From a virus (Duplodnaviria > Caudoviricetes), in the IMG/VR virus record IMGVR_UViG_3300014695_000002, positions 22,000-85,999 of that record: a DNA stretch of 64,000 nt; one strand, 5' to 3'. Made by a program: the position numbers and the translations under genes. Under the pieces are notes generated by a model. It saw only the letters and a program-made list of their open reading frames with translations. It did no database searches and had not been told where the DNA came from. The stretch's first letter is position 1, and each line of letters starts with the position of its first letter. Below are positions 25,221 through 53,403 of the stretch, piece after piece.

Positions 25221-25403
25221 TCAGAGAGTCTTATAATAGCCTTTAGACTTTAGGAACTCATATGCTTCTGATAAAGCGCTATTCGATCCCTGTGAAAGCA
25301 CCAGTCTTTCAATCACTTCAAAAGCCTGATAAAGCTCTTTGTTATCTTGCATGAGCTTGCGATAGAGGTCAAATGAAATTTCTACCTTCTCTAAATTATT
25401 CAA
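25221..25403 (-). CDS. hypothetical protein
   Basis: GAGGAGG RBS; first gene of the leftward block. Confidence 0.7.
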   Translation of the reverse strand: MNNLEKVEISFDLYRKLMQDNKELYQAFEVIERLVLSQGSNSALSEAYEFLKSKGYYKTL

Positions 25404-25434
25404 AGCGCACCTCCTCGTTTGGTTGATAGGACAT

Positions 25435-25462
25435 ACGATACCACAGATTTTCAGTGAGTCAA
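25435..25462 (-). promoter_or_regulatory. leftward sigma70-type promoter
   Basis: TTGACT-16-TATCGT with TG extension, divergent from the 25507 promoter. Confidence 0.6.
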
Positions 25463-25506
25463 CAGGTGAGTGAAAATATTTTTAGAAAGATTTTTGGCGG
25501 ATGGGC

Positions 25507-25535
25507 TTGACATCACAGCTAGAGCATGAGATACT
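25507..25535 (+). promoter_or_regulatory. sigma70-type promoter of candidate ncRNA A
   Basis: TTGACA-17-GATACT. Confidence 0.8.
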
Positions 25536-25541
25536 TCTAAA

Positions 25542-25900
25542 GGTCAGAGAGAATCTGAATCGGCACTGATGGGGTATGCCTCTTGTTATAGGGAGGAGAG
25601 ACTTAGCGTCAGTTGCTTAAACCCCTACTACCGAGGCGATGGGATGGGGCGGGAGAAGCTTGAAGGTCGTTAAACTCCTGTATGGCCGTAGACTTTAGCA
25701 CAAGTAAAGACGATCCATCTGCCGAGGGTGCTACTTCGGGCAGATTACCACACACTCTATTGGTGTGTTCCTATCGAAATTGATAGGCTTGAATTCGGGA
25801 CGCTCAGTATAGTCTTGAAGAGAAGGTATGGGCTTTACTCTGGGGATTCAAGATTAATTTCTTGACCCTGGGGTAGGGCTTTTTATACCTTCTTGAAATC
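25542..25900 (+). ncRNA. candidate large structured ncRNA, copy A
   Basis: No ORF; GC-richer than flanks; multiple hairpins including a long G-U-rich stem 25822-25892; shares an exact 19-mer and collinear motifs with 52200-52614. Confidence 0.65.
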
Positions 25901-25963
25901 GAACTTTCAGTATAGTATAAAAGATATAAGAATTAATAGATAAATAAACATAGGAGTTAAGAT

Positions 25964-26158
25964 ATGAAATTAGAGATTAGATATGATTCTAATAGAAAGG
26001 AGTGGTTTTGTATGTTACCTGTAGACTATACCTCATGGCAAGCTTCAGGTGAGAGCCCCTTAGAAGCGTTTGAGATTTATCTGATTAAGGTTAATGGTTG
26101 TGCTGAAAAACATGAGATTGATTATAAGTGGTGTAAAGAAAGAGGACTGATCTGGTGA
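25964..26158 (+). CDS. hypothetical protein (HicB-like N-terminal pattern)
   Basis: AGGAG RBS; W...LP......ASGESPLEA. Confidence 0.65.
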   Translation: MKLEIRYDSNRKEWFCMLPVDYTSWQASGESPLEAFEIYLIKVNGCAEKHEIDYKWCKERGLIW

Positions 26159-31715: not shown

Positions 31716-33941
31716 ATGTTTATTCCTGATAAGTCAAAAGTAAATATTATCGATGCTTCTGGAATGACAGCCGATTGGCCTATTCAGCAGCTTCCTTATA
31801 AAGCTTCAGATGGTACAATTAAAGGTTCTGGTCTTAGGATTCTAACCAGTGGTACAGTGCTCGCTCCTGTAGGCTTTGCTGTAGAATCTGGCTCTGTTGA
31901 CTTTGGTGATGTGCTAAGACTCTCTGAGTCTGCTGGTTTTCTAGCTTTTGAAAACATGGTAGATAAAAGTAAATATCAACTTCTAGATTATGCAGTCCCT
32001 CGTGATGCGGCATCCTCTAAACCATTTTACTTTAAACTTGCCGGACCTGAAGTGAGATTTGAAGCGAATAAATCTTCTGCTTCAGTTATCAAGACTAACC
32101 CCCTTAGCTGGGAATATACCACTAAGCTCACTGCTCGTACCAATGCTCTTATCTTCAATGCAGCAGAGAAGATGAACAATGTTCGTCTACGGATTACTGA
32201 TAAGAAGAGCGGGGTAGCAATCAAGTATTATCCATCTAAGTCGGCTTGGGTAGATGGTTCTGGTGGTACTATTCTTGATGTGGGCGAAAACAACCTAGAC
32301 TTCCAAGATACTGCGGTAATTTTCTCTGCCAACACTGATATTATTTTTGATATTCAAGCTGATAATATTGCTTTGGTTGGTGGTACTATCCCTTGGTTTG
32401 CAGGATTGGTTCAGCAGGGAAGTTTTGTTGGCGTAGCGGATGTTTTTGACGTATCTGCATTGCAAGATCAAATCAATAAGCAGAAGGCATCTTTCAACGG
32501 TGATTATAGCGCCCTTACAGGCGTTCCTACGAGCTTTCCGCCTTCTCCCCATACGCATGTAGTGGATGACATTACCGACCTTCCTAGCAAGCTTACAGAG
32601 CTTTCTAGCGCTATATCTCAAAACACTCAAAGCCTGAATGGATTGGCTAAGGTTGCAACGACTGCAAGCTACACTGATCTTGTAAATCAACCCTTTATTC
32701 CAACCGCTACAAGTCAGATTGAGAATAATAGCGGATACATTACGATCCAACATACTCATCCAATAAGTGACGTTGTTGGTTTGCAAGATGCTTTAAACTC
32801 TAAAGCTGGAAGTAATGAGTCTATTCCCGTCTCTCGTGTGACAGGTTTAGCTACAGTTGCGACTAGTGGAAGCTACAATGATCTTAGCAACAAGCCAACT
32901 ATTCCAACCAATGTAAGTCAGCTTGCAAATGATAGTGGTTATATTACTGCTGCTCAAGTGCCTCAGCAGACAGTAACTTGGGCAAGTATTACAGGTAAAC
33001 CAGTAACATTTACACCTTCTGCTCACCAGCATCCTATTAGTGATATAACTGGTTTGCAGAACACGCTAAATGCAAAAATAGATGCTTCTACTCAGATTAG
33101 CTACAACAATCTGACAGATAAGCCTAATCTATTTTCTGGCAATTATAACGATCTGATCAATAAGCCAACGTTGTTTTCTGGTAGCTATGCAGACCTTATC
33201 AATAAACCTGTTTATGCCACTGTAGCAACTACTGGCAGTTATAATGACCTCTTGAACAAACCTGTAATTCCTACAGTTAACTATCCCGTGACTTCTGTTG
33301 CTGGTAAGACTGGTGCTGTGACTTTGGTTGCGGGTGACATTAGTGGTCTAGCTTCTGTAGCAACTACTGGAATGTATTCGAGTCTTTCTGGATTGCCTAC
33401 TATCCCTGCTGCTCAGGTTAACAGTGATTGGAATGCAACAAGTGGTGTTGCTCAGATTCTAAATAAACCAAGCCTTTTCAGTGGTTCTTGGACTGATCTG
33501 ACAAACAAGCCCACTACATTTACTCCGTCTGCGCATCAACACCCCATCAGTGATATTACCAATCTTCAAACAACGCTTGACACTAAAATTACTGCTGCAA
33601 GTTTACCGATAACAAGGCGTGCAGACAATAGCTTAGTGTCTCGCACAAAGGTTAAGTACTACAAAGTCACAAGCGACAGCACAAGCTCTATTTGGACTGT
33701 TAATCTGGGAAGTGATTTCAGCGAGATTCTAGATATTCAAGTTCAGGCAGAGTCAGTTAGTACCCTTCTAGGTGGCATTAGACAGGTAAGTATAAATAGT
33801 TGGACTTCTACCTCAACGACTATAACGGGTATGACTTTTGGTTCAAACACCATCACTACAATTCTTATTGGCGGCTCTCAGGGTCTAGCTTTAGTCCCAG
33901 GAACAGTTGTCCGTTGTCGAGTTGAAGGCGTAGGCGGTTGA
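31716..33941 (+). CDS. long repeat-rich fibre protein
   Basis: Repeats SY.DL.NKP, H.HPISDI.GL, SQL.NDSGYIT, VTSVAGKTGAVTL, QVNSDWNA. Confidence 0.8.
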   Translation: MFIPDKSKVNIIDASGMTADWPIQQLPYKASDGTIKGSGLRILTSGTVLAPVGFAVESGSVDFGDVLRLSESAGFLAFENMVDKSKYQLLDYAVPRDAASSKPFYFKLAGPEVRFEANKSSASVIKTNPLSWEYTTKLTARTNALIFNAAEKMNNVRLRITDKKSGVAIKYYPSKSAWVDGSGGTILDVGENNLDFQDTAVIFSANTDIIFDIQADNIALVGGTIPWFAGLVQQGSFVGVADVFDVSALQDQINKQKASFNGDYSALTGVPTSFPPSPHTHVVDDITDLPSKLTELSSAISQNTQSLNGLAKVATTASYTDLVNQPFIPTATSQIENNSGYITIQHTHPISDVVGLQDALNSKAGSNESIPVSRVTGLATVATSGSYNDLSNKPTIPTNVSQLANDSGYITAAQVPQQTVTWASITGKPVTFTPSAHQHPISDITGLQNTLNAKIDASTQISYNNLTDKPNLFSGNYNDLINKPTLFSGSYADLINKPVYATVATTGSYNDLLNKPVIPTVNYPVTSVAGKTGAVTLVAGDISGLASVATTGMYSSLSGLPTIPAAQVNSDWNATSGVAQILNKPSLFSGSWTDLTNKPTTFTPSAHQHPISDITNLQTTLDTKITAASLPITRRADNSLVSRTKVKYYKVTSDSTSSIWTVNLGSDFSEILDIQVQAESVSTLLGGIRQVSINSWTSTSTTITGMTFGSNTITTILIGGSQGLALVPGTVVRCRVEGVGG

Positions 33942-33965
33942 CAAGTACATTTTATCTGCTATAAT
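33938..33965 (+). promoter_or_regulatory. consensus sigma70 promoter overlapping the fibre stop codon
   Basis: TTGACA-16-TATAAT. Confidence 0.8.
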
Positions 33966-34125
33966 TGTTTACGCGTGGTCCCGGCGATACGGGACAACCA
34001 AAGACTGCGCAACGGTCTGAAAAACGTGTAACAGGTAAGACTTCTACAGCAAATCACTCTTTTAAGAGGGTTTGTTATGCGTCCCCTGTTGCGACTTAAC
34101 TGGGTGATTTGACTATAGAGGTTTT

Positions 34126-34817
34126 ATGAAACTGCTTTGTGATTTTGGAATCAATGACTTAAATTATTCTGTTTTAGAAAGAGAGATTATTTCGGGAAAG
34201 GTTCAAACAGAAAATATAAGGTCTTATTTGCGTGCCCCTTCTATCAAACGTGGCATGACATGATTCATAGGTGTTATTCTAATAAAATGACATCAAGAAG
34301 AATGAGGTACTTAGGTTGTTCGGTTAATCTTGCTTGGTCGAGAGCAACAGAATTTAAAAAGTGGATGTTAGAAAATAATTGGAACGAATCCCTTAGACTT
34401 GATAAAGATATTCTTTTCCCTGGAAATAAAGAGTATGGTCCAGATACTTGTGCATTAGTACCTCACTATGTGAACGCAAGCATTGTTCTGCCAGATAGCT
34501 CGGATTCGTTTTTGCCGTATGGAGTTACTTATCAGAGTGTATATAAAGACGATCCACGTCCTGCGATAAAAAGGTATCAAGTTAGATGTTGTACTGGAGG
34601 TCCTGATAGCTTTAGAAGACATCTAGGAAGTTTTTCTTGTTCGATGGAAGCTCATAAAGTTTGGCAATTAGCAAAGATAGAATCACTTGATAACACTTTA
34701 AGCCATTATTCTAAAGAATCTTGCTACAGAAAAGATGTTGTCGATGCAATAGAGTTCAGAATAGCTATGATACTAAGCGATCTAAACCTAGGTATTGAAA
34801 CTAAAAGTTTTAAATAG
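34126..34817 (+). CDS. HNH homing endonuclease split by a -1 frameshift (programmed, or pseudogene)
   Basis: ATG 34126 frame MKLLCDFGINDLNY..SGK is homologous to the N-terminus of 61284..61883; -1 frame continues GSNRKYKVLFACPFYQTWHDMIHRCY; GGGAAAG at 34194-34200. Confidence 0.75.
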
Positions 34818-34953
34818 GTAGTTTTTGAGAGTCAATTACTTTTCCTGGTTGACTTTCCTCTAGTGCAGCGAGTCTCCTACCCATCGTCGTCATGGGTCTG
34901 CACAGACGGCACTTTTTCGAATGATATCCTAATAGATTTTATCTGAAAGAGTC

Positions 34954-34983
34954 TTGACAGAAATAGACTGCTCCTATTAGAAT
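34954..34983 (+). promoter_or_regulatory. sigma70-type promoter for the glycosyltransferase pair
   Basis: TTGACA-18-TAGAAT. Confidence 0.65.
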
Positions 34984-35006
34984 ACAAGTTTACATAGGAG
35001 AGAATA

Positions 35007-39754: not shown

Positions 39755-41128
39755 ATGGCACATGCTCTAAGGCTTCTTACTCAGAAGCTATACAATCAGC
39801 CTCATCTAATGGAGGCTAAGAGCTTTGAAGCTATCATGAGCTACCTTGATCATCGTAACAGTGGTCAAGCAGTATTGCAAGATAGCGAAGATGAACGCTC
39901 TAACAAATCCCATCTAATGTACAACCCAGACACCAAAGTCGGAATGCTTTCGGTAGAAGGTCCCCTCACTTATAAGCCCGTTACTATGATGGGTTTTGAT
40001 TGTGGTGGTGCTAACTATCAAGCAATGAAAGCTGACATGGATGCTCTTGCTGAACAGGGTATGAAAACTCTTGTTCTGAACGTAGATAGTGGTGGCGGTG
40101 AAGCTTACCAAGTATTTGAAACTGCACAATACATTCGTAATGTAGCAAATGCTAATGGTATTCAAATCCTATCCTATATTGATGGTATGAGTGCTTCTTC
40201 TGCTTATGCTCTAACTTCTATTTCTGATCAGATCATTGTTAATCCTCAAGCTGAAGTTGGCAGCATTGGTGTTGTCGTTCGTTTGATGAATGATTCCAAA
40301 GCGCTTGAGAAAGAAGGCTATGAACGTACTTTCGTCTATGCCGGTGGCAGTAAGGTGCCGTTTGCAAAAGACGGTAGTTTCCGCGAAGACTTTATCTCAG
40401 ATATTCAAAGTAAAGTAGATACGCTTTACGAAAGCTTTACTGAGTTTGTTGCAGAACATCGTGACATCTCAGTAGAAACTGTTAGATCGACTGAAGCTAA
40501 GACTTTCTTGCCAAAAGAAGCACTGAGCCTAGGTCTAGCAGATGCTGTAATGACTCATGAAGAGTTTTACTCACATTTAGCAGACGTAGCTCAAAAAGAG
40601 AATAACATGCTCAAACTTAAATCCAAGATGTTTAATATGTCGCAAGACAGTGTTAGTGAGGTTGAAATGAAAGAACTTGAACTAGCTAAAGAACAACTAT
40701 CTGAAGTGCAAGCTCTGCTTTCAGCCAAAGATGTTGAACTTCAAGCTGCCCTAGAAGATGCTGTAACCCTTAAAGCTTCCTTTGATACTCAAGCTGCTGA
40801 GCTAGCTGGTATTAAAGAGCAACTAGCTGTATTCCAAGCCCAGAAAGAAGCTGCTGACCTTGCTGCCAAACAAGCTGTTGCTCAAGCCCGTCTTGACAAG
40901 CTAACTGCTGCTGTTGGTACTGAGAAGGCTGCTGAACTTTCTGCTAAGTTTGAAGGTGCTGACGATGCTCTATTTGAAGCAATGGTTGGTGCTCTAGAAT
41001 TCGCCTCTGTTGGCGAAAAACAATCTGCCCTTTTCACTGAGATGGGTGCGGATACTAAGGTTGAGACTAATCCCTCTATGGAAGAAGCTCTCGCTGCTGC
41101 AATCAAAAAACAATACAAAACTAAGTAA
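39755..41128 (+). CDS. prohead protease (S49) fused to scaffold
   Basis: DSGGG, SASSAY, GSIGVV motifs; Ala/Glu-rich coiled-coil C-terminus. Confidence 0.9.
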   Translation: MAHALRLLTQKLYNQPHLMEAKSFEAIMSYLDHRNSGQAVLQDSEDERSNKSHLMYNPDTKVGMLSVEGPLTYKPVTMMGFDCGGANYQAMKADMDALAEQGMKTLVLNVDSGGGEAYQVFETAQYIRNVANANGIQILSYIDGMSASSAYALTSISDQIIVNPQAEVGSIGVVVRLMNDSKALEKEGYERTFVYAGGSKVPFAKDGSFREDFISDIQSKVDTLYESFTEFVAEHRDISVETVRSTEAKTFLPKEALSLGLADAVMTHEEFYSHLADVAQKENNMLKLKSKMFNMSQDSVSEVEMKELELAKEQLSEVQALLSAKDVELQAALEDAVTLKASFDTQAAELAGIKEQLAVFQAQKEAADLAAKQAVAQARLDKLTAAVGTEKAAELSAKFEGADDALFEAMVGALEFASVGEKQSALFTEMGADTKVETNPSMEEALAAAIKKQYKTK

Positions 41129-51294: not shown

Positions 51295-52191
51295 ATGAAG
51301 TATAAAGACTATTACATTAATAATGGGTATCAGCTTGTTATTGGAGATTACAAGAATGATCCAAACAATGGAGTCTTGATTGATAATCTCCAAATCACTT
51401 TTGAAGTAAGTAAGTCTATCAGTAATAAAGACAAGACAAACTCAGCTACTATTGAGATTTATAACCTTGATGAGCAGACTATAGCACTGCTTGACAAAGA
51501 GTTTATTGTTGCTGACTTCTATGCTGGATTTGAGAATCTTGAGATTAAGAGGTTATTTGCTGGAGAGGTTGTGCAGGCCACTACACGAAAGCAAGGAACG
51601 GATGTTGTAACTCAAATCCGTATGGGGGCGGGTTACTCTCAGGTTAATCATGGTGTTTTAAACCAATTAGTTAGCCCTGGTCGTACTGTTAAGGAAGTGT
51701 ATGAGGAGCTTCGTAAGAATATCTCTGGTATTAACAGGGGTGTTTATAATGGAGCTAATCTAAACAATCCTGTCATTGATGGATACCCCATATACGGTAA
51801 TGCTAAATCTGAACTTAACAAGCTTAGCCAAGCTACTCAGACACAATGGCAGATTGATGGCGATGCTTTGTATGTCTCTGATGCTGGTGTAGGTTGGATG
51901 AGTGATAAATCAAGAGCTATCGTTATCTCTCCTGAATCTGGATTGATTGATATTGCATACAAGGTAGCTGCTGAGGGTTATAAAAAGAAACAAGACCCAG
52001 CTAAGACTGAAGGTATTCAGTTTAAGGCACTATTAAATCCTAATGTCATCCCTGGCTGTATCATCAAATTAGAACAAGATGATCAAACTCTTGATGGCTT
52101 CTATACTGTCACCTCTACAAGATTTACTGGAGACTTCAGGGGTAATCCTTGGTATGTTGAGTGTCGTTGTGGTAAGAAGATTAGTAGTTAA
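51295..52191 (+). CDS. baseplate hub (gp27/gpD-like)
   Basis: ITFEVSKS...NSATIEIYNL, WQIDGD, LLNP...PG...L...DGFY.V. Confidence 0.85.
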   Translation: MKYKDYYINNGYQLVIGDYKNDPNNGVLIDNLQITFEVSKSISNKDKTNSATIEIYNLDEQTIALLDKEFIVADFYAGFENLEIKRLFAGEVVQATTRKQGTDVVTQIRMGAGYSQVNHGVLNQLVSPGRTVKEVYEELRKNISGINRGVYNGANLNNPVIDGYPIYGNAKSELNKLSQATQTQWQIDGDALYVSDAGVGWMSDKSRAIVISPESGLIDIAYKVAAEGYKKKQDPAKTEGIQFKALLNPNVIPGCIIKLEQDDQTLDGFYTVTSTRFTGDFRGNPWYVECRCGKKISS

Positions 52192-52199
52192 TTAGATAT

Positions 52200-52614
52200 A
52201 AGATTTATACTTGCTACTGATTTTGAAGAATTTTGGGTAAAGAAACCCATACCGTTCATAAGCTAGCTTTCTAGCTCCTAGAACGATACTTGGCTTGATT
52301 ACCCCATTCTCCAACATACAGCCGTTAAGCCAAAGGCCCTTGCTACTTGATATGTTAGATATTGCCCGAAGGCTGCGTTTAGAGACGGCTCGCAATAACG
52401 CCTGGGTGCTATAGACTAATACACAGCTATAACTTTGACTGCCTTCCCCGGTGTTTCGGGTCATACCCTGTTCAGTCGTCACTCAGTTGGTCTTTGGTTT
52501 GCGTGGTAGACCTTTAAATCATATCGCCCCCGTCTACCTCCCTATAACAAGAGGCTTACCGTCCAATATGATCGATTTGAAAGAATGTCGTTACCGTTAG
52601 ACTTTCAAAATGTA
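52200..52614 (-). ncRNA. candidate large structured ncRNA, copy B, antisense to the tail operon
   Basis: Promoter at 52621-52649; many hairpins; shares GCCTCTTGTTATAGGGAGG and collinear motifs with copy A. Confidence 0.65.
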
Positions 52615-52620
52615 TTAACC

Positions 52621-52649
52621 ATTGTACAGGCGATAGTGTCTCCTGTCAA
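52621..52649 (-). promoter_or_regulatory. sigma70-type antisense promoter
   Basis: TTGACA-17-TACAAT on the - strand. Confidence 0.85.
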
Positions 52650-52668: not shown

Positions 52669-53403
52669 GTGGCAGATCAAGAGATATCGTTACAAGAGAC
52701 ATTGCAATCTGCTGTAGAGCATCACCTTGAGAACATGAATACTTGTGTTCCAGGCTTTGTCATTCGCACAATCAATGACTTGCAAGGTCAGCAAATAGAC
52801 GTTCAGATCGCTATCAACTTCAAAGGATATGATGGTAGCTCACAAGAACGTCCTCCAATTCTCAATGTACCTGTCGTATTTCCAGCTTCATCTACCAGCG
52901 CTATTACCTTCCCGTTGAATCCTGGTGACCCTGTATTGCTTGTATTCAGTCAGCGTGGTCTTACAGCTTGGAAGGGTAGCAATGGTTACGCTTCTACTCC
53001 TACAGACTATCGAATGCACGACATCCGTGACTGTTTCGCAATCCCCGGCCCCTTCCCTGTAGGACGTGCTCCAAACAACCCTGCTAAACGCCGCTGGCCT
53101 CACTCTACGCATGATTTAGTGGTAGCCCATAACCTAGGTAGCGGTACAGAGGTTGAGCTTCGTCTGAGCGAATCTGGAAGCCTTATAATCAACACAGATA
53201 TGAATGTTGAAATTAATGCAACGCAAGCCTTGGTTAATGTACCTAATAGCACTTGGACAGGTGATATCAATCACACAGGTATGTTTATAAACAACGGAGT
53301 TGTAATGAGCAATGGAGTAACCCTCCATAGTCATACTCATAATCAGCCAGCAGATAGCGGTGGTGATACTGAACTACCAACCTTCCCACCAAACCCAGGA
53401 TAG
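52669..53403 (+). CDS. baseplate central spike (gpV/Gp138-like)
   Basis: LNVPVVFP, PLNPGD.VLLVFSQR, DCFAIPG, C-terminal LHSHTH metal site. Confidence 0.88.
   Translation: MADQEISLQETLQSAVEHHLENMNTCVPGFVIRTINDLQGQQIDVQIAINFKGYDGSSQERPPILNVPVVFPASSTSAITFPLNPGDPVLLVFSQRGLTAWKGSNGYASTPTDYRMHDIRDCFAIPGPFPVGRAPNNPAKRRWPHSTHDLVVAHNLGSGTEVELRLSESGSLIINTDMNVEINATQALVNVPNSTWTGDINHTGMFINNGVVMSNGVTLHSHTHNQPADSGGDTELPTFPPNPG

Follow-up and report, generated by a model that had tools for sequence, protein, structure and literature searches.

Genome setting and the gene-free gap

The window analysed here is a 64,000-nucleotide stretch (bases 22000–85999) of an 86-kb IMG/VR virus record (genome G000), which encodes terminase, portal, tape measure, baseplate hub and wedge proteins. 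The nearest isolates are Ounavirinae-like Pseudomonas myoviruses; vB_PsaM_M1 has 50% identity in the terminase and 44% in the hub. Leftward genes end at 25403 and rightward genes begin at 25964, which leaves a 560-bp gap without genes. A noncoding RNA element, here called copy A, had been placed at the divergence point of the main transcription blocks in a sequence-only reading of this DNA, and this position is borne out. There is no credible open reading frame (ORF) in the 25403–25964 gap, and a public gene caller called zero genes in the matching stretch of a near-identical contig. Cumulative GC skew reaches its minimum at copy A. A second structured RNA, copy B, is encoded on the minus strand at 52192–52616, and both RNAs are followed by a very AT-rich stretch of 40–55 nt. 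The 90 bp on the 5' side of the copy A promoter (window 25404–25494) constitute a leftward promoter/leader region with 96% identity between G000 and the related genome G002, which is higher than in the neighbouring genes.

Promoter, fold and parts of copy A

Copy A is headed by a predicted sigma70-type promoter on the plus strand (25507–25535) that consists of TTGACA, a 17-nt spacer and GATACT with a TG before the −10 box (10/12 matches). Transcription is predicted to start near 25541. A promoter occurs at this position in relatives, even where the promoter sequence is replaced. The structured RNA of ~378 nt extends over 25541–25918 (+), with limits set by the edges of a block of near-perfect conservation, and it folds at −131.5 kcal/mol with 122 pairs, 21 of them G-U. 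Folding both strands had been proposed with the sequence-only reading; for 25542–25900, the plus strand reaches −130.1 kcal/mol (z −4.06, with 0/100 shuffles as good) versus −94.6 kcal/mol (z −2.86) for the minus strand.

From 5' to 3', copy A comprises P1, AAUCGG, P2, UUAAA, P3, a string of hairpins, a long hairpin and a short tail. P1 (25544–25558) is a predicted hairpin of 5 bp with a 5-nt loop whose pairs are compensated in genome G001, and the AAUCGG junction (25558–25563) follows it directly. The P2 domain (25562–25617) contains an outer helix, in which 25563–25575 pairs with 25601–25616, an internal loop, and a tip hairpin, in which 25579–25584 pairs with 25591–25596 around the loop GUUAUA; this domain has covariation support from the comparison of A with B. 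The UUAAA junction and hairpin P3 (25617–25649) are predicted from the fold, as are six successive hairpins in the middle region (25650–25819). The long terminal hairpin (25820–25894) is a candidate RNase III site or 3' stabiliser. It is followed by a conserved 3' tail (25895–25918), beyond which (~25918) identity to the related contig L213 falls off; a tail motif resembling that of A was seen by eye in other RNA types. An AT-rich spacer and then the ribosome-binding site of the first ORF lie between the tail and 25963. This ORF (25964–26158, +) encodes 64 amino acids without a family match; it is diverged in L213, replaced in G002, and exchanged jointly with the RNA body between G000 and G001. 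No intrinsic terminator is predicted 3' of copy A.

Several smaller hairpins had also been named from the sequence. Four are present in the minimum-energy fold (25717–25745, 25750–25768, 25770–25787 and 25692–25705), and a fifth, GGGGT/ACCCC, which was thought to enclose a conserved 19-mer, is absent from the fold and competes with the covariation-supported P2 outer helix. Two other pairings were considered and rejected. Pairing of the 5' end of A with the ribosome-binding site of the first ORF, which appeared in an alignment fold, would involve bases that coincide in part with the −10 box and precede the likely start. In a potential pseudoknot between the P2 loop and the tail, the tail position varies among A, G and C with an invariant loop.

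The long hairpin had been described as a stem of about 30 bp with seven G-U pairs at 25822–25892. It is real and requires slight correction: when 25818–25898 is folded, 25820–25853 pairs with 25860–25894 to form 32 bp that include 8 G-U pairs and are interrupted by one 3-nt bulge and one 2-nt asymmetry. Its energy on the plus strand is −42.2 kcal/mol (z −9.5 against mononucleotide shuffles); the minus strand reaches −22.8 kcal/mol with only 24 pairs and zero G-U. Equivalent long 3' stem-loops occur in other types of the RNA, with 36 bp in type B. RNase III substrates are double-stranded and near-continuous over at least about two helical turns, a length that the 32 bp in A attain. The hairpin of A has no sequence variation of its own, so that its covariation support is borrowed from copy B. 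The long hairpin appears to be conserved as a shape rather than as a sequence, which fits a double-strand-specific enzyme of RNase III type or a 3' stabiliser, with RNase III the most likely.

Conservation of copy A in relatives

In G001 (87 kb), the body of A is 100% identical from 25563 to ~26122 between flanks of 72–92% identity. The promoter and P1 sequences differ from those of G000, with all P1 pairs compensated. L213, a 55.8-kb ENA contig, has 4/360 differences in 25545–25904 (98.9% identity) between flanks that are 52–87% identical (80–87% on the left and 52–72% in the first ORF). One of the four changes converts a G-U pair to G-C (25651/25679) and three are in loops, two of which are hairpin loops of the middle region, so that zero pairs are broken. 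Because the edges of the block conserved in L213 match the predicted RNA, the block can be equated with ~25541–25918, which leaves the first ORF outside. Besides constraint, recent lateral transfer could account for the near-identity of A in three genomes.

In G002, the promoter and P1 of G000 precede another body (A') and another first ORF, and homology to G000 resumes from the second gene; the breakpoints of the A/A' exchange are at AAUCGG and before the second gene. A' folds at −123.9 kcal/mol in the sense direction (z −3.1) and at −87.8 kcal/mol in antisense (z −1.0). In a further relative, L215, the promoter at the A locus is present and the RNA is absent. The sense strand of copy A folds 34–36 kcal/mol better than antisense, and all 15 related RNAs examined have the same asymmetry (22–37 kcal/mol); all are G-rich and C-poor. 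Selection on a plus-strand RNA rather than on a DNA cruciform, as initially proposed from the G-U pairs, is supported by this strand asymmetry, by the compensated changes in P1 and P2, and by the block conserved in L213. A lack of conservation in related phages had been set as grounds for abandoning the RNA reading; the RNA of copy A is conserved in both G001 and L213.

Copy B and its link to copy A

Copy B occupies a 477-bp gap between the baseplate hub gene (51295–52191) and a spike-like gene (52669–53403). Its predicted sigma70-type promoter (52621–52649, −) consists of TTGACA, a 17-nt spacer and TACAAT (11/12 matches), points against the late baseplate operon, and is retained in every relative fetched. 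The RNA is ~425 nt long (52192–52616, −). No ORF lies downstream of copy B and no terminator is predicted after it; without a downstream ORF, copy B cannot be only a leader. The sense strand folds at −127.6 kcal/mol (z −3.6) and the antisense strand at −99.8 kcal/mol (z −0.5). In an alignment of three genomes (433 columns and 131 predicted pairs), pairing is kept in 98.7% of cells, and there are 16 compensated pairs compared with 7.0 ± 2.0 in shuffles (0/500 shuffles as high) and 0–1 in slid controls. They are concentrated in the P2 outer helix (4) and the long 3' hairpin (7), the latter being the most variable part, with 34% of columns variable, compared with 3–8% in the 5' end, P3 and the tail. 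Indels among relatives have lengths that are not multiples of three, and a 96-aa ORF inside copy B was dropped as a coding candidate for this reason.

Copies A and B are linked by a 24-mer (25573–25596 in A and 52560–52537 on the minus strand in B) that is identical at 23/24 positions and is the only other match to the A gap in the genome. When P2 is aligned on this 24-mer for A and three B copies, a 10-bp outer helix is common to all; 6/10 pairs show compensation between A and B, pairing is kept in 98.4% of cells, and slid controls give 0. Part of A thereby has direct covariation support. No similarity between A and B is detectable beyond P2, and a 9-mer and an 8-mer motif that they have in common were discounted as chance level for two 400-nt sequences. 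On this sequence comparison, the P2 module is the only convincingly shared part. The hairpin formed by the 24-mer, common to A and to a B copy that heads no operon, is absent from A' and from the B', B'' and L205 types.

A group of RNAs with conserved ends and variable interiors

RNAs with like ends and unlike interiors occur at both loci in ~15 uncultured Ounavirinae-like phages. Members have a promoter, P1, UCGR, P2, UUAAA(G), P3, a variable multi-hairpin interior, a long imperfect 3' stem-loop and a short conserved tail, and the order UCGR, P2, UUAAA(G), P3 recurs in every type at both loci. Where spike-protein homologues were traced to 54% identity, all keep a 470–800-bp gap, the antisense promoter and the element order. 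At least four interior types occur at the B locus: type B (G000, G001, G002 and L203), type B' (L017, L122 and L206), type B'' (L018, L207, L212, L208 and L209), and that of L205. Type B'' has 85% identity over five phages with 14 compensated pairs. Structural proteins are less conserved than the RNA within a type; this and the compensated changes indicate selection on the RNA fold itself.

Most copies at the B locus lack same-strand cargo behind the RNA. L018 has a frameshifted HNH endonuclease there (phrog_99, E 1.7e-36) behind an intact RNA, and in the same place L207 (1227–1526), L212 (1229–1528) and L208 (1175–1480) have minus-strand ORFs of 99–101 aa with a hydrophobic N-terminus that is signal-peptide-like by eye. 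The more distant L020 and phage M1 have no gap at the B position. The absence of the A RNA from L215 and of the B insertion from distant relatives means that the RNA is dispensable for the basic life cycle.

Relatives were identified by a metagenome protein scan, which gave three loci, and mostly from a protein database and exact-protein look-ups. Alignments comprise just 3–5 sequences per type. An across-type MAFFT alignment shifted P2 by one column, and the first family-wide covariance model had no pairs. A covariance model of the B'' 5' domain matches only B'' copies; since the model of one type finds only that type, treatment of these RNAs as one family rests on their common ends and architecture.

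Other noncoding regions were noted in these genomes. In the window, a unit at 33938–35006 (+) has a third consensus-like promoter, which overlaps the stop of the tail-fibre gene and is followed by a leader of ~150 nt, an HNH endonuclease (34260–34817; phrog_953, E 8e-49) that looks truncated or frameshifted and has a 45-aa ORF just 5' of it, and a folded trailer; the architecture of this unit is unlike that of A and B. A noncoding stretch of ~430–500 nt is near-identical between G001 (C1:45018–45927, −) and G002 (C1:21600–22100, +) and folds at about −0.28 to −0.33 kcal/mol per nt. On one side of it is the tail-fibre gene and on the other a small ORF similar to the C-terminus of the G000 tail fibre; the UCGR/UUAAA signature is missing from the stretch, and Rfam gives no match to it at the gathering threshold. 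Two gene-free regions of G002 (C1:500–995 and C1:80697–81087, both −) have one strand that folds well, with z of about −5.3 and −3.6, respectively (12 shuffles).

Searches against known families

The whole window has 0 matches in Rfam 15 at the gathering threshold, and relaxed thresholds give only chance-level matches for A, B and related types (E 1.9–8.7). The put and boxA/boxB models in Rfam do not match A or B, ARAGORN finds neither tRNA nor tmRNA in the window, and blastn searches with A, B and B'' against 50,697 GenBank phage records return no match. No published description of this RNA group in uncultured Ounavirinae-like myoviruses was found. The group I intron model RF00028 does not match A, B, A', B' or B'', and A and B have no flanking exons on their own strand. 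The same model recovers a true intron from another part of G001 (C1:28665–28914, −; also L192:8665–8914), in the tail-gene region, with 84.5 bits and E 9e-20; this intron was not found in the window. Sub-threshold group I intron matches occur at L018:335–620 (+) and L017:339–508 (+), with 29.8 and 25 bits compared with a gathering threshold of 50. These sites lie ~2.5 kb upstream of the hub gene, probably within the tape-measure gene.

Other identities were considered and set aside. Mimicry of a CRISPR repeat by the 24-mer hairpin, as in an RNA anti-CRISPR, was rejected because its 16-mer core occurs once per contig with unrelated flanks in 185,579 species genomes; a run of Nostoc matches to this core is one orthologous site and is unrelated. 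A 14-mer scan of viral contigs gave ~100 chance matches. A T7-like promoter reading of TATAGGGAG within the 24-mer was dismissed given that the longest ORF in the window is ≤741 aa, that only two copies exist, and that the sequence forms a G-U-containing RNA hairpin. A CsrA/RsmA sponge of RsmY/RsmZ type was likewise discarded: each RNA has 5–10 GGA motifs, merely 1–3 of which are in loops. Apart from the 24-mer common to A and B, antisense targets in the phage genome do not exceed chance; the sole 14-mer complementary match, between B nt 57–70 and the plus strand near genome position 4185, is at about chance expectation. A 15-mer at 40050 was excluded as a pairing site because it matches the plus strand in the same sense.

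Comparison with known systems

Promoter-early stem-loop (PeSL) motifs in T4-type phages combine a promoter with a stem-loop and mediate modular shuffling (Arbiol et al. 2010, PMC2839356). PeSL units and morons resemble the present elements in having a strong sigma70-type promoter and a stem-loop at the boundary of units that close relatives gain, lose or replace, and in lying between conserved genes, even inside late operons, with variable cargo. A consensus-like promoter is found at the edge of every copy here, and replacement with breakpoints at motifs is evident from the A/A' exchange at AAUCGG, from B, B' and B'' at one locus, and from empty sites. A stem-loop that acts as a terminator and an ORF as cargo are not characteristic of these elements: P1 lies inside the transcript, downstream of the promoter, it has no U-tract, and cargo ORFs are optional and mostly absent. 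PeSLs are also short promoter–terminator motifs that flank ORFs, whereas the conserved content here is an RNA of 380–430 nt with covarying helices. By analogy, PeSL-type shuffling fits the sharp breakpoints at P1/AAUCGG.

The leader of lambda N, with nutL and a hairpin for RNase III, HK022 putL/putR and the T7 early RNase III sites are 60–220 nt long and, as far as is known, always precede genes. They are comparable to the present RNAs in having promoter-proximal hairpins common to two transcription units and a long imperfect hairpin just 5' of the ribosome-binding site of the first gene, where shape matters rather than sequence; unlike them, copy B precedes no gene. GOLLD (RF01998) and ROOL (RF03087) are also heavily structured phage RNAs of several hundred nucleotides found by comparative analysis. 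The present RNA, by contrast, is smaller, consists of hairpins in series with exchangeable interiors, and matches no Rfam family. Adenovirus VA RNAs are abundant transcripts made by host polymerase, with long imperfect G-U-containing stems and two per genome, that act as decoys for host double-stranded-RNA-binding proteins. The likeness is a functional analogy only: adenovirus is a eukaryotic virus, there is no homology, and a decoy role here is pure conjecture.

Pseudomonas phage PAK_P3 produces early antisense RNAs over structural genes (PMC4933390). Like copy B, these are transcribed against a late structural module from apparently early promoters in a related kind of myovirus. They differ in that they lie within genes and are not reported to have conserved folded modules; copy A is antisense to nothing. 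The antisense RNAs of PAK_P3 are a precedent for the orientation of copy B.

Interpretation and alternative explanations

Copy A very probably represents a functional plus-strand RNA. That it is a discrete, processed RNA with a role in trans is a serious possibility that we put forward tentatively. On balance, the explanation that seems somewhat probable overall is that of a stable early RNA that would be released at the long hairpin, bind a factor and spread as a cassette. Copy A would be transcribed by host RNA polymerase from its consensus-like sigma70 promoter as the start of the rightward transcript, and a strong promoter of host type would give early and abundant synthesis. P1 and the tight, C-poor body may shield the RNA from 5'-end-dependent decay and from Rho. 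The 32-bp G-U-rich hairpin would be a site for double-strand-specific processing or stabilisation, most likely by RNase III, and cleavage there would free a stable RNA from the downstream message. The invariant P2 tip of A and B, along with other invariant loops, may bind a common protein partner, so that the RNA could serve in trans as a scaffold or decoy during early infection and could also shape downstream expression. The module would spread by recombination at its conserved ends, at times with cargo genes.

A rather unlikely alternative is that the RNA is a purely cis-acting 5' leader of the rightward operon that provides message stabilisation, RNase III processing, or put/nut-like antitermination in P2. 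Copy A does directly precede the first ORF, with the sole promoter found on its other side and no terminator; in several relatives, cargo ORFs lie immediately behind the RNA; and the promoter-proximal hairpin common to A and B recalls nutL/nutR and putL/putR. However, the RNAs of B, B', L205 and L209 have no downstream ORF and run antisense into the hub gene, the RNA of L213 is 98.9% conserved when its supposed target ORF is just 52–72% identical, and A' in G002 lacks the common hairpin. Moreover, ~380 nt with many invariant loops exceed what known leaders of this kind need. An RNA that acts in its own right is favoured over a pure leader because B and several other copies have no downstream gene to regulate and because the L213 ORF has drifted and the RNA has not. 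This preference is only modest because A is positioned as a leader of the rightward operon with no terminator after it.

A selfish mobile cassette, in which promoter and RNA form a carrier or relic of homing-endonuclease or moron-type cassettes, are maintained by lateral spread and not by an advantage to the phage, and have a fold that serves only cassette expression or mobility, would account for the L018 RNA being followed by an HNH endonuclease (phrog_99), for further HNH genes and a true group I intron in the clade, for the absence of the insertion from more distant relatives, and for interiors swapped with sharp, PeSL-like breakpoints at conserved ends (PMC2839356). We consider it improbable, since the endonuclease is absent from most copies, that of L018 is frameshifted but its RNA is intact, and within-type conservation of the RNA exceeds that of structural proteins and includes compensated changes. 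Less probable still is a replication-origin transcript, in which promoter, folded RNA and AT-rich stretch would form an RNA-primed origin as in ColE1 RNA II or the promoter-dependent origins of T4 and T7. Location of A at the cumulative GC skew minimum, the 40–55-nt AT-rich stretch after each RNA, and two copies per genome would suit an origin, but the skew switches where transcription changes direction and so is uninformative in this respect. Against an origin also stand the absence of the RNA from the A locus of L215, the cargo ORFs behind some copies, the free swapping of interiors, and the lack of adjacent replication genes. It is scarcely credible that the locus is a chance or DNA-level feature (hairpins arising by chance in a spacer, a DNA cruciform, or a missed small protein gene). 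Long AT-poor spacers frequently fold well and the minus strand also reaches z −2.9, yet the 22–37 kcal/mol strand asymmetry in 15/15 relatives, the G-U pairs, the compensated changes, conservation above that of neighbouring genes, and the lack of a conserved reading frame all argue against it.

Beyond the stable, factor-binding early RNA favoured above, A and B might belong to a new class of trans-acting early phage RNAs: stable, RNase III-shaped, protein-binding decoys or scaffolds that would be the counterpart in bacterial viruses of the adenovirus VA RNAs. Their interiors would be alleles specific to each type, with diversity maintained by conflict with host defences or competing phages. 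This idea is speculative and on present evidence unlikely. If true, alleles maintained by conflict would explain the different types at two loci and conservation that exceeds that of virion proteins.

Implications

To our knowledge, virulent phages have yielded very few large structured RNAs, almost none with a known function. Comparative support is unusually clean in the present case, with compensated helices, conservation above that of baseplate and early proteins, two copies per genome, and several interchangeable types at fixed loci, which makes this RNA a tractable case once a host is found. Automatic annotation leaves gaps of ~500 bp blank, and a covariance model for each type would fill them. 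Action in trans would mean that early host takeover, or competition between phages, has an additional RNA layer. Action in cis alone would still leave an unusually elaborate leader that doubles as a recombination module, and the PeSL/moron idea would be extended from genes to RNA genes.
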